Origin: Octopus vulgaris
Lineage: Eukaryota
Reading direction: 5' to 3'
Length of the DNA stretch: 64,000 nucleotides
NCBI GenBank assembly: GCA_951406725.2
Contig: OX597840.1
Coordinates: forward strand, 19,902,001-19,966,000
The notes beneath the pieces are model-generated. The model did not search any database, had not been told where the DNA came from, and saw only the letters and a list, made by a program, of their open reading frames with translations. Positions 20,432 to 59,696 of this stretch are shown here, in pieces; the first letter of the stretch is position 1, and the number at the start of each line of letters is the position of its first letter. Position numbers and translations under genes: made by a program.

Positions 20432-20563
20432 TGAGGTACTCAGAAATTCGGATGGTTTTATATTTACAGATATTTATTTGTGTATTACATGTTTTTATAA
20501 AAACATGTAATACACAAATAAATATCTGTAAATATAAAACCATCCGGATTTCTGAGTACCTCA
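20432..20563. repeat. 132-bp near-perfect loopless palindrome, plus an adjacent IR at 20563-20660
   Basis: Centre GTTTTTA|TAAAAAC at 20497/20498 with one mismatch. The whole block is flanked by (TA)n. Confidence 0.92.
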
Positions 20564-21079
20564 AAATAGTAAAAAGTGAAAAATGAACCTTATTAATTTT
20601 TAAATATTTTTTAACCTTTTAAAACTAGCCTTCTGTAGTTTTTTCACTTTTTACTATTTTATATATATATATATATATATATATATATATATATACACAC
20701 GCAAGTGGTTGTGCTGGTGTAATTTTTCTGTCTGTGTAGGTCAAAATTCGTCGACATTGTCGTAACATAGCGGTCAACATTTGGAACAGAACAAATGCTG
20801 TGACGTCAGCCAGGTTTCATCAGCACCCATCTCTCACATTCGAACATAGACGCAAGCACTAGTACAAGCACACTCACTCAGACACACTCAGACACACATA
20901 CACACACACAGACGTGTCGGTGTAGTATGACACAGTTGATGTGTCGACAGCCAACTGGAAACGATGCTTTCCTGAAGCTAAAAATTAGTAACATCGTCCT
21001 AAGCAGGACTGCCATTTTACGTTGGCAAATAAACTTTATTTTGCAGTACTGTAGCTACATATTTCTCCACACGTATTCT

Positions 21080-21312
21080 CGGCGAGCTGGCAGAATCGTT
21101 AGCACACTGGGCGAAATGCTTAGCAGTATTTCGTCTGCCGCTACGTTCTGAGTTCAAATTCCGCCGCGGTCGACTTTGCCTTTCATCCCTTCGGGGTCGA
21201 TAAATTAAGTACCAGTTACGCTCTGGAGTCGATGTAATTGACTTAATACCTACGTCTGTCTTTATTTGTCCCCTCTGTGTTTAGCCCCTTGTGGGTAATA
21301 AAGAAATGGGTA
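21080..21312 (+). mobile_element. SINE-A, full length
   Basis: Matches the consensus and abuts the truncated Tc1 element. Confidence 0.9.
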
Positions 21313-21314
21313 TT

Positions 21315-21995
21315 CTCGACCGATGGTCAGAAATAAGGTAAAGGATGACTCGTCCGAGACAAAAACATCCTTCCACTTCTCTAGGGACCAATTCTGTAGG
21401 TTTTTACTCCACTCTAAACGCTTTGCAACGTTTATTTTTGAAAGTAGTGGTTTTTTGATTGCAGCCCTCTCGTAAAAGCTGGCTTTGTGCAGCTCCCGGC
21501 GAACAATTTTTGTGGAAACTGGGTTCTCGAGGTGGTCCTTAAGCCCTGTAGTAATTTTAGGGGGCTGTACTTTTGTGATATTTTCTAACAATTGGCGTAA
21601 GAGTCCGACGGTCCCGAATCTGAAAGTTTTGGTTTCCTTCCGGAGTTTTGTTTCGACGAGGAGGCTTTTCCCTTCTTCTCAAAGGCTGTCATTACTTTCG
21701 AGACAGTACTTCTTCATACACCAAATATTTCGACTGCTTTCGTTACGCTAGCGCCTGCCATACGAGCACCAACGATTTGACCTCTTTGAAAGTTCGATCT
21801 CTCATTTTAATGAATTTTAATTAACTTTTTCTGATGATATCTGAAAAGAAACAGCAATTTTAGCAAAACATATTAATCAACACTAATAATAATAATAAAA
21901 AACATAACAGTAAACAAACTTTTGACGATTTTATAGATATTTCAAAATTATGATGCTATGATGCTAGGTGTTTCCATTATTTTGCCAAACCCCTG
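21315..21995 (-). pseudogene. Tc1/mariner transposon left half with a decayed transposase
   Basis: TA followed by TIR CAGGGGTTTGGCAAAATAATGGAAACACC at 21995. Translation FQRGQIVGARMAGASVTK..GRKPKLS..VSTKIVRRELHK..KKPLLS..KRLEW..WKDVFVSDES covers the HTH domains and the first D of the DDE triad. It carries a stop and frameshifts. Confidence 0.9.
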
Positions 21996-22347
21996 TATAT
22001 ACATACATATATACACACACACACACATATATATATATATATATATATATATATATATATATATATATATACATATATATATACATACATATATATATAT
22101 ATATACATATATATATACATACATATATATATATATATATATATTAGCTGAAACTGGAAAAATCAAAATCAAAATCATATATATATATATATATATATAT
22201 AGACATATATACATATACATATATATATATATATATATATATATATATATATATATATATATATATATATATATATATATATATATATATATATATATAT
22301 ATATATATTGTGTGTGTGTGTGTGTGTGTGTGTGTGTGTGTGTGTGT

Positions 22348-22620
22348 GGAGGCGCAATGGCCCAGTGGTTAGGGCAGCGGACCCGCGGTCGTAGGATCGC
22401 GGTTTCGATTCCCAGACCGGGCGTTGTGAGTGTTTATTGAGCGAAAACACCTAAAGCTCCACGAGGCTCCGGAAGGGGATAGAGGCGATCCCTGCTGTAC
22501 TCTTTCGCCACAACTTTCTCTCACTCTTTCTTCTCTTGGCCTGGTGTCACTTGAAGGCTAAAACAATGCGAAGCGCATTGTGACCAGCGACGTGTAGCAA
22601 CATCTGGTCGGTCAAGGTGA
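22348..22620 (+). mobile_element. SINE family C
   Basis: Homologous to 44762-45059. Confidence 0.85.
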
Positions 22621-22721
22621 TATATATATATATATATATATATATATATATATATATATATATATATATATATATATATATATATATATATATATATATA
22701 TATATATATATATATATATAT

Positions 22722-56605: not shown

Positions 56606-56624
56606 TATATATATATATAATTCA

Positions 56625-57262
56625 TTTATTCTTTTACTTGTTGCAATCATTAGACTACGGCCATGTTTGAGCACCGCTTATAGTCGAACTAATCGACGCC
56701 ACGACTTATTCTTTGTAATTTGTAAGCCTAGTACCTATTCCATTGGTCTCCTTTGTTGTCGAACCGCTAATGTTACGGGGACGTAAACACACCATCATTG
56801 GTTGTCAAGCGATGGTTGGGGGAGGACAAATACAGGTACACAAACATGTACACACACACATTTATATATATATATATATATTTAATGTGGGATAAAATTT
56901 TTTCGGAAAATTTTTTATCAATGCCCAGCATATTAAAAAATACCTTTAAAGGTTAAAATTATAAACAACTTTTTTGTCAGTGCAGAGGTCGCGGTCTTAA
57001 AGCGACGAAAATATTTTGACAAATTAAACTTAAATGTTAAAGTGAATCGAACGGCTTTTGTGTGTTTCTTAAATGGCTTGCAAACACCTTCCACGCCGCA
57101 ATTGTATATATATATATATATATACGACGGGCTTCTTTCAGTTTCCGTTTACCAAATCCATTCAAATGGTTTTGGTCGTCTCTAGGCAATAGTAGAAGGT
57201 ACTTACCCAAGGTGCCACGCATTGAGACTGAACCCGGAACCTTGTAGTTGGGGGCTACACCT
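56625..57262 (-). mobile_element. SINE-B split by a hammerhead-bearing insert (56881-57104) in its TA tract
   Basis: 3' half at 56625-56860 and 5' half at 57124-57262. Confidence 0.75.
56973..57023 (+). ncRNA. Hammerhead-like fold with variant core GUGCAGA
   Basis: UUUGUCA-GUGCAGA-G-GUCGC-GGUCUUAAA-GCGAC-GAAA-AUAU-UU-UGACAAA: 7-bp stem I, 5-bp stem II, palindromic stem III. Confidence 0.6.
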
Positions 57263-57979
57263 ATATACATAAACATACATGTGCGTGTGTGTGTGGGGGG
57301 GAATGAACGCATGCATATATGCATGTTTCTATACTTAGCTTTGTACTAAAATCCTTACGATACATATATGCCCCACCCCTGTACCTCACCTATTCCTCCA
57401 CTACCAAGCACCCGCCACCGCCGCCGCCGCCGCCATCGACAACAGCAACAACACGGCACCGACTTACGTGACGGTTACGTGGCGGGAAATTACTTAAAAA
57501 TAGTAAGATAATGCGAGAATGGAAATGTACAGGAGGGGGAGGAGGAGGAGGAAAGGGAAGGACGAGGAGGAGGAGGAAGGGGAAGGACGAGGAGGAGAAG
57601 GAGAAGGAGTAGGAGGAAGGGGTAGAACGAAGAGGAGGAGGAGGAGGAAGGGGTAGATCGAGGTGGAGAATGGGAAAAAGGCGGGAAATAAAGGGTGGTG
57701 GGTAAGGGGGCTGGAAGTGGTGGGGGTGGGGGTGTTTACATGGTGGAACGGGGAGACACGCCGTGCAGCGGGTTTGTTGGTAAGTATGATGATTATGATG
57801 GTGATGGTGATGGTGGTGGTCGGGGGTGGGGGGTATGCATAGAAACTTAAGTGTAGTGCTGTGCAGTAGCACCAACAGCAGTTTACCTGCGTAATAACTG
57901 CTGCTGTGTAAATTCTCCAGCCCCCACCAGCACCCCCCCAACACCCCGCTCTAACACCACCACCCTCGACACCATTACT

Positions 57980-58405
57980 GTGATATCACCACCCCATCAT
58001 CATCATCATCATCATTATTATCACCGGGAATAAAAGCCCCCCCCCCATCACCACCACCACCAGCCCCATCGCCACCATCACCATCGACATTGTTACCACC
58101 ATCACCGCCATCGTCACCAACAACACCACCACCATCATCGTCATCTACATAATGAGTAACACCAACGCCATCACTTCCATCACCACCATCAGCATCATCA
58201 TCGTCGCTATTATCCACCACCAACACCACCATCACCACCACCACCACCACCACTACCACCATCACCACCACCACCACCACCACCATCACCACCACCACCA
58301 CCACCACCACCACCACCACCATCAACACCACCACCACCACCACCACCACCACCACCACCACCATCAACACCATCACCATCACCACCACCACCCTCACCAC
58401 TACAT
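57980..58405. repeat. (CAC)n/(CAT)n tract
   Basis: Directly visible. Confidence 0.93.
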
Positions 58406-59283
58406 CACACGGTTACGTCGTACAACACCAGGGAGTCAGTCGGGGAGAGAGAAGGAAGGTGAGGAGGTGGTACGAGGAAAGGGGCCATTATTCGGTGACG
58501 ATGGTGACGGAGCCGGTGATGGTGATGTCGATGACGATGGTAGGAGGGGAGGGGGGAGGTCCCCTTACCGTTTCAAAAAGAGAAAGTACTTGCAACAACA
58601 ACAATAACAAATTAACCACACAAAACAAAACACAACAAAATGTCTACCTTTCTTTATTGCATATCAGATGTCTCTTTTGTACGCCTGGAAAACTGGCGGG
58701 AAAACATATATATATATATATATATATATATATAGATTCTGTTATGTTATGTTATGTAGCAGCTTTCGCGGGAAAATATTCGCGCGCTTTTTCTAATAAG
58801 GAGGGCGAAACGGTTTATTTTCGTGCACATTTTTTTAACGGTGCGTTCATAGTTCTTTGTACCCGCTTTTTTCTTTTTTTTTTTTTACCTTTTTGGGGGT
58901 TTCTCCTCCTTCCATCTTACATCTTTCTTCACTTTCCTGTACTTTCTAATCATTGCGTTAATGGCGATGATGACGATGATGATGATGGTAATACATATAT
59001 GGTATATATATATATATATATATATATATATATATATATATATATATATATATATATATATATATATATATATATATATATATATATATATATATAATAT
59101 ATATATATATATATATATATATATATATATATATATATATATATATATATATATATATATATATATTATATATATATATATATATATATATATATATATA
59201 TATATATATATATATATATAAAAAAAAAAAAAAAAAAAAAAAAACACATATATATATACTTATATATATATAAGTATGTATAT

Positions 59284-59432
59284 ATATTGTTATATTTCGG
59301 AATGGTTATATTGCCAGTTTAGACAATAAAAACACACGCACTATATATTTGGTGTTATTTTGCTTCAGTGTTATTTATTTTTTACATTAAACTTAATCTT
59401 ATTTCGGCCAGAGTTCTTTCGTCACACTCCTG
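59284..59432 (-). mobile_element. Family E single arm
   Basis: Homologous to 22777-22926 and stops at TTCGTCACACTCCTG. Confidence 0.85.
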
Positions 59433-59616
59433 AATATAAGTATATATATTTATGTATATAAGTATATATATATATATATATATATATATATATATATATA
59501 TATATATATATATATATATATATATACATACATATATTTATATATATATATATATATATATATATATATATATATATATATATATATATACTTCATTATT
59601 AATGTCGCAAAGACAT

Positions 59617-59696
59617 CACAAAAGCTGTTACTTAGAGTTTCATCTTTCCGTTCGTCGACGAACGAGAAGGTGAAACTCTGAGTAACAGTTTTTGTG
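59617..59696. repeat. 80-bp imperfect palindrome centred on GTC|GAC with a half hammerhead in each arm
   Basis: The right arm reads ..GGU-GAAA-CUC-U-GAG-UA-ACAG. It is adjacent to (TA)n. Confidence 0.8.

Follow-up and report, generated by a model that had tools for sequence, protein, structure and literature searches.

Palindromic insertions of Penelope-like elements in Octopus vulgaris and the position of their turning points relative to the hammerhead ribozyme

Results

Palindromes in the Window

The window analyzed here is a 64,000-nucleotide (nt) stretch of the Octopus vulgaris genome (GCA_951406725.2, contig OX597840.1, positions 19,902,001 to 19,966,000 of the forward strand), part of a 2.8-Gb assembly and rich in (TA)n and repeats resembling short interspersed nuclear elements (SINEs). 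Its palindromes are short head-to-head insertions of five families of Penelope-like elements (PLEs), designated E, F, G, H, and I, that lie in (TA)n (Table 1). Self-comparison of the window DNA with simple repeats masked recovered, each in its place, the five palindromes on which an earlier note on this DNA had built its argument, those beginning at 20432, 31288, 40008, 42235, and 59617. Positions on an element are given as c, the distance 5′ of the predicted hammerhead cut, with c0 as the first base of the 3′ product and negative values on the 3′ side; the joints named were placed on natural longer copies of each family.

The earlier note held that these palindromes turn around inside the ribozyme. 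Four centers do lie there, two in stem II of family F (31288 and 42235), one in the core and stem II of family G (40008) and one in the core of family H (59617). The fifth, at 20432, does not: the hammerhead-like motif of family I, with a U3-A8 core, a stem II and GAAAG-CG-CUA, is located upstream, and the AAAAAC-AU-GUA at the center is without a stem II. The joint was at c-17 on the chosen reference, and further 3′ in copies with more ATATG repeats. Outside the earlier list there were two counter-examples, 37036–37193, in which no hammerhead was seen, and 22781–23224, the largest palindrome of the window. The latter, from family E, turns at the predicted transcription start (c99/97), about 60 nt 5′ of the ribozyme, and each arm holds a whole hammerhead. 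Two further observations of the note were borne out, namely that the family E copies near 34367 and 59432 break at the same base (both c22, at the top of stem II; the hot spot there is small but real) and that the family F copy at 40318 inverts on the stem III side, where an arm ending at c9 meets a tail-bearing arm ending at c-120.

Table 1. Insertions of Penelope-like elements and the hammerhead located in the window, with the palindromes that they form.
Feature	Position	Strand	Arms	Joint or end	Palindrome (arm identity)	Remark
Family I head-to-head insertion	20387..20563		tail-bearing 20387-20499 (sense on -); tail-less 20496-20563	c-17	20432-20563 (98%)	joint 3′ of hammerhead-like motif
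Family E head-to-head insertion	22722..23228		tail-bearing 22722-23003; tail-less 23005-23228	c99/97	22781-23224	
Family E complete minimal type I hammerhead	22898..22944	-				core start 22938; rare extra T at cleavage site
Family F insertion	31295..31618		tail-less 31295-31385; tail-bearing 31379-31618	c38/38	31288-31476 (98%)	joint at apex of long stem II
Family E insertion	34219..34453		long tail-less to c22; short tail-bearing from c-93	3-nt overlap		neither arm contains the other
Family G insertion	39929..40114		tail-bearing 39929-40065 (to c38); tail-less 40068-40114 (from c27)	c38/27	40011-40111 (91%)	joint in core/stem II
Family F insertion	40320..40462		tail-less to c9 (stem III side); tail-bearing from c-120	2-nt overlap		
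Family F insertion	42092..42416		tail-bearing 42092-42323 (to c22); tail-less 42324-42416 (from c27)	c22/27	42242-42409 (97%)	joint in stem II
Family E solo tail-less copy	59284..59432	-		c22		ends at top of stem II; belongs to minor genome-wide hot spot
Family H insertion	59607..59696			c27/29	59617-59696 (88%)	joint in ribozyme core

That the palindromes are artefacts of assembly or amplification is extremely improbable. The joint at 40066 was bridged by none of the listed contig pieces, although one run covered it. Against this, the palindromes recur at hundreds of loci, where the arms start next to (TA)n from two constant ends of the element and are told apart by the tail and by a divergence of 1–12%. 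Independent runs yielded contigs with opposite-strand joints of family E, and the L070 joint (5350/5390) was found in two studies.

Identity of the Families and Their Hammerheads

Family E is an autonomous PLE. Reverse transcriptase motifs were read directly in the translation of its 1312-aa stop-to-stop frame, together with a CX2-5CxxC linker and a CCHH in the endonuclease, an architecture of the Neptune/Nematis type by the definitions in PMC8557442 (statements on published systems, here and below, refer to excerpts of each source). At locus L070 a 4598-bp unit was present in tandem and as an inverted copy; the tail reads as the start of the open reading frame (ORF), and the pseudo-long terminal repeat (pLTR), which arises from the partial tandem, overlaps this ORF start. 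In families F and G, frame ends resembling GIY-YIG were recognized by eye upstream (L164/L170/L149 and L360), while the full ORF was not recovered. Families H and I may be non-coding. Genome-wide pattern matches numbered 2354 for E, 1772 for F, 5903 for G, 521 for H, and 1411 for I, and the view that the insertions are retro-insertions of PLEs was upheld.

All five families carry a minimal type I hammerhead-like motif in the pLTR, with core motifs and stems read from the copies; stem II of family F is 53 nt. Free folding of the motifs does not favor the active fold (z -1.7 to +1.0), and an Rfam scan gave no hammerhead family, only miRNA-like matches on repeats or hairpins, among the 150 of 309 matches listed. 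Young family E copies (L070:5274-5268, minus strand; window 22938-22932) have C at core position 9 and a CUU triplet, and diverged copies have A9 and CUC. Three family I copies (L265, L255, and L266) show the U3-A8 core swap, as in schistosome PLEs, with the motif directly behind an initiator-like element. An extra T at the E cut site, at window position 22904 (minus strand) and at six other loci, was present in 7 of 3862 copies genome-wide and on the tail-bearing arm in six of the seven. A reading of this base as the mark of a re-ligated circular RNA was dropped because the initial loci had been selected by their own query and the base is this rare; the retrozyme papers searched contained no supporting passage, and matches beginning at query 94–95 are ambiguous for the same reason of query selection.

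Arm Ends and Predicted Transcription Starts

Sampling covered 70 of 100 listed places for each of E and F and 30 loci for each of G, H, and I, the window's exact variant making up 14 of the G and 6 of the H loci. After removal of window copies and duplicate overlapping loci there were 98 arms for E, 107 for F, 44 for G, 50 for H, and 38 for I, in total 337. Anchor-bearing arms cannot break inside the anchor, which biases rates over anchors low, and the anchor of G and H covers the cut site.

Break points were far from uniform in these arms, as the earlier note had expected. In four families the arm ends peaked some 30 nt downstream of a TATA-like box, and in the fifth (H) the distance was about 20 nt. 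The break rate per nt was highest 24–36 nt behind the box (1.29% in E, 1.91% in F, 11.3% in G, 9.4% in I, and 2.7% in H, whose ends actually pile up at c44-48), in a start zone that was drawn after the peaks were seen. By comparison, the whole ribozyme had a rate of 0.19% in E (p = 3e-4) and 0.54% in F (p = 1e-3), and families G and I had no breaks at all in the 150 nt 5′ of the start zone. The boxes are located at c131 (E), c176-181 (F), c74 (G), c67 (H), and c73 (I), those of G, H, and I having been counted by hand, and that of family I is followed by an initiator-like TTAGTT. The predicted RNA starts are c97-103 (E), c144-156 (F), c42-47 (G), c44-48 (H), and c37-41 (I). A promoter and transcription start inside the pLTR have been described for Penelope (PMC2377424).

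The gap between this wall of arm ends and the ribozyme behind it is 0–10 nt in G, H, and I but 60–75 nt in E and F, the wall keeping its place relative to the TATA-like box. Because the distance from ribozyme to start differs between families, of which this genome contains young copies by the thousand, the two can be separated as the cause of the turn. The main peak tracks the box, which counts against the proposal that the ribozyme sets the geometry of the insertion. Centers in G and H fall inside the ribozyme almost by default, as it takes up most of the sequence from the predicted RNA start to the element end. For family G, a spacing of 76–82 corresponded to both arms ending at the wall (c42-45) in 13 of 25 listed pairs, and at least one arm ended at c42-45 in all 14 further short pairs, which were chosen for a spacing under 90. 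Random tiles covering 200 kb held nine palindromes, few and mixed, of which the two with a clear hammerhead (L048 and L054) turn just 5′ of it.

In two different long family E insertions (L070:6971 and L085:3399) the break is at one and the same base far inside the ORF, c2251, which might reflect a shared source copy or another RNA end.

Pairing and Joining of the Arms

A tail-bearing arm was paired with a tail-less arm in 103 of 108 inversions, and three of the other five do carry a tail; solo tail-less copies also exist. Arm lengths were compared in 94 of the 103 pairs, after exclusion of those censored by the reference or locus end. The tail-less arm was longer by more than 5 nt in 38 pairs (a class that includes window 34219–34453 and 40320–40462), the tail-bearing arm was longer in 31, and the two were within 5 nt of each other in 25. 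In the 38 pairs neither arm contains the other, hence two priming events were needed and a fold-back of a single strand is impossible. The joints mostly showed 1–6 overlapping bases or a few inserted bases.

Near-symmetric pairs were in excess of the 15.3 expected from shuffled pairing (p = 0.001; p = 0.002 in E and p = 0.02 in I; the arms are not independent), implying either that both copies came from the same RNA end or that some folded back there. The latter would be a cDNA that runs off the RNA 5′ end, folds back through 1–3 terminal bases and self-primes the second arm, contributing a share of the symmetric palindromes alongside the joining of two copies. Self-priming was proposed by Arkhipova et al. 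(2013), and in this variant it would take place where the template ends instead of at stem II. Besides the near-symmetric excess, several G joints and that at 31288 can be read as a 3–4-nt loop closed by 1–2 pairs, and the short inverted duplications described below look like short fold-backs. This origin is impossible for the 38 pairs with a longer tail-less arm, however, and the second arm would have to stop at the tail-less point every time. The same symmetry results from two cDNAs that share one RNA end, and the rare extra T was on one arm only in 4 of 4 palindromes, although later slippage would give that too. We consider terminal fold-back an unlikely contributor, if the least unlikely of the alternatives.

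Short inverted duplications of 25–40 nt were present at the joint in L159, L167, and L100, which suggests brief fold-back synthesis before final joining.

Breaks Within the Ribozyme

Breaks in family E were counted genome-wide by a pattern that required 20 intact bases and, at two positions upstream of them, bases foreign to the family, with identical exclusion letters in the cleavage-site and control patterns. Matches can end only at the three tested bases, so that the evidence lies in the count and not in the exact base. There were 103 matches at the cleavage site (c0-2), 31 at the top of stem II (c20-22), 106 at the predicted start (c97-99), and 5 at the control (c41-43), a single site whose matches were not inspected and for which, as for the others, the numbers at risk were estimated. 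Inspection by eye of 30 loci each gave true ends in 28 for the cleavage site, 28 for stem II, and 21 for the start, the remainder being indel variants. A hand estimate from the sample (8 breaks, c-69 to -7) put the expected background at about 8–11 matches per site, which places the cut site at about 9–18 times and the stem II site at 4–6 times background. An estimated 3–4 in 100 family E arms end at the predicted cleavage site and 1–2 in 100 at the top of stem II. Partner lengths at the cleavage-site joints were unrelated. Judged from these counts, the pile-up at the cleavage site may be a trace of cutting in vivo. The clustering in the hammerhead that the earlier note foresaw thus held for these two sites of family E, but not for the main peak, which lies at the predicted start and, in E and F, outside the ribozyme.

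It is improbable that the front edge of the folded ribozyme, through stem I or a bound protein, sets the wall instead, with the c0 pile-up marking pausing at the folded core or at a GC clamp rather than cleavage. Such an edge would fit family G, where the wall is the first base of stem I (c45), and families H and I, where it is within 10 nt of the ribozyme edge, and a GGCC tetramer does follow the E cut site. In family E, however, the front edge (c41-43) is the cold control site, which is also GC-rich on its 3′ side, the wall of E and F is 60–75 nt away, and the c0 joints are not symmetric about GGCC.

The earlier note further proposed a stall of reverse transcription at the hammerhead followed by snap-back of the cDNA via stem II, with the ribozyme fixing the geometry. 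In favor of this, four window palindromes and three breaks lie inside the ribozyme, and the E hot spot at the top of stem II exceeds the control (31 vs. 5). In family F the ribozyme breaks about twice as often as the stretch just 5′ of it (35 breaks in 6439 arm-nt vs. 9 in 3410, p = 0.03), with stem II no richer in breaks than the rest of the ribozyme (p = 0.86). Stem II complementarity is used in the G pair L216 and in L303, the one among 29 stem II-end arms that resembles a slipped stem II fold-back. Against snap-back, no sampled arm of E (0/98) or I (0/38) breaks in stem II, and the partners of E arms ending at c20-22 are scattered from c-90 to c761 rather than lying on the paired strand. 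The in-register product was absent from 121 E arms, containment of one arm in the other was violated in the 38 of 94 pairs described above, and in L216 the long arm is without the tail and the short arm has it. With the main peak of E and F outside the ribozyme as well, the snap-back account can be given very little credence.

Three independent joints (L300, L311, and L314) bring together one arm with its end at c0 and another with its end at c22, overlapping by 2 bases.

Other Features of the Window

The 158-bp palindrome at 37036–37193, with a 25-nt spacer and a one-sided extension, lies between (TA)n runs and probably represents another PLE-type family. A short hairpin-rich segment (40160–40318, with an inverted repeat at 40225–40276) immediately precedes the family F copy at 40320, and an older AT-rich inverted repeat of 78% identity surrounds a (TA)7 run at 40604–40824. 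Solo minimal hammerheads of at least four other families are located at 8037, 9047, 11779, 17935, 25345, 28458, 33781, 47105, 47258, 49496, and 56476, mostly in non-inverted copies adjoining (TA)n.

Discussion

We interpret the palindromes as insertions of PLE ends made from two separately primed DNA copies that were joined at their far ends through 0–6 matching bases, and assign this reading a probability of roughly two in three. The head-to-head layout, the pairing of tail-bearing with tail-less arms, the short overlaps at the joints, and the positions of the arm ends were observed directly, and from these we infer the rest of the mechanism. Both target strands in (TA)n would prime, one at the tail end and the other at the tail-less end of the RNA, in the manner of the Anolis protein in vitro (PMC11167929). 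Most arms would stop where the RNA template runs out at its 5′ end, which is as a rule the predicted transcription start; their ends would then probably be trimmed back by up to about 30 nt, and the two copies would be joined at the far ends via short matches. Where the ribozyme is right behind the start (G, H, and I), start and trimming together would put the joint at or inside the ribozyme, while in E and F the peak would stay at the start. For the minority of E arms that end at the predicted cleavage site, self-cleaved RNA was likely the template. Since most short arms contain the whole ribozyme, their template would have been uncut. Most products would be short because the priming sites are near the transcript 5′ end, and long arms would need read-through RNA from a tandem copy.

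Several points weigh against this reading. The transcription starts are predicted from sequence, and RNA contigs cannot show 5′ ends. The start zone was defined post hoc, the wall of family H (c44-48) is just 19–23 nt behind its TATA-like box, and one family F subfamily is without TATA. Symmetric joints fit fold-back as well as two-copy annealing, and 25 near-symmetric pairs are more than chance pairing gives. This reading does not account for the E hot spot at c20-22, and the excess at the E cut site leans on one uninspected control site. Family F had no cut-site excess (6 breaks, a rate equal to that elsewhere in the ribozyme), in G and H the anchors span the site and would hide any excess, and a cluster of family I ends at c0 was rejected as unreliable, the ends sitting in ATATG repeats. 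Cleavage by the young E core with C9 is a prediction only. As to the PLE identity, the Pfam matches in the C-terminal part of the family E protein, RVT_1 (E-value 0.0014) and GIY-YIG (E-value 0.00045), are both below curated cut-offs; the whole ORF matched no Pfam family, and the protein had no significant match in PDB. No ORF was present in up to 1450 nt upstream in four long copies each of H and I.

The elements and their layout are ordinary PLE biology, and the value of the insertions is as a testable map of template ends. With the odds evenly balanced, the thousands of short PLE insertions in this genome would be a fossil map of the 5′ ends of template RNA, recording the start in every family and the hammerhead cut in E, and the palindromes would be what a two-headed enzyme normally makes when it primes both target strands at two fixed RNA sites. 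If so, this genome would offer the first in vivo indication of cleavage by a minimal metazoan PLE hammerhead and of reverse transcription of the cut RNA, and inverted pLTRs and one-sided tails would be explained in one step. The origin of inverted and tandem PLE insertions and the role of the hammerhead stand as open questions in excerpts of PMC8557442, PMC4209133, and PMC11167929. A full-text literature search, with most subscription journals and supplements outside it, returned no report of PLE inversion points mapped to an RNA start or cut site. The families yield base-level predictions for RNA starts and for one cleavage site.

Comparison with Known Systems

Twin priming of LINE-1 also starts from two nicks, each of which primes a cDNA, and microhomology serves to join the two; the second primer can anneal at any point within the RNA, and there is no overlap between the segments. 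Unlike in LINE-1, the second start of the octopus elements is fixed, 55–150 nt from the first, so that the arms overlap and a palindrome results.

Endonuclease-bearing PLEs are known to insert with an inverted, 5′-truncated pLTR and a one-sided tail (Arkhipova et al., 2013, PMC3846280; Craig et al., 2021, PMC8557442). The families described here have in common with them the head-to-head layout, a palindrome at the inverted junction, a tail at one end, partial tandems, (TA)n targets, microhomology at 5′ joints, and a TATA/initiator in the pLTR. Tails are longer here, at 55–150 nt compared to 30–40 nt in the known elements (PMC3846280, PMC8557442). Self-priming has already been proposed as the source of PLE junction palindromes (PMC3846280). 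In the excerpts of PMC3846280 and PMC8557442 the junction palindromes are read in this way with no map of the breaks, whereas in the five families described here the predicted RNA start is where arm ends peak, and self-priming of a single strand is excluded for 38 of 94 pairs.

The protein of PAc, a Poseidon element from Anolis, cuts both strands in vitro and extends them, with synthesis beginning at two internal sites on either side of the tail (Frangieh et al., 2024, PMC11167929). The PAc tail is the start of the ORF, and uncleaved RNA is the main template (PMC11167929). As far as the excerpts of that study go, inverted insertions were not explained and no RNA reads started at the hammerhead cut; in family E, by contrast, arms end there in excess across the genome.

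Minimal type I hammerheads of metazoan PLEs occur as opposite-strand motif pairs 100–700 bp apart, and evidence in vivo was stated to be absent in the excerpts of Cervera and de la Pena (2014, PMC4209133). The octopus motifs share with these a short or palindromic stem III, an extra base between 9 and 10.1, and, in family I, the U3-A8 variant, but differ in the 53-nt stem II of F and the C9 of young E copies. Animal non-LTR retrozymes also carry a type I hammerhead and are thought to be moved by PLE enzymes (PMC7229834; 10.64898/2026.07.22.740005). Unlike the retrozymes of those two sources, which consist of short tandem monomers, families E, F, and G have PLE coding sequence upstream.

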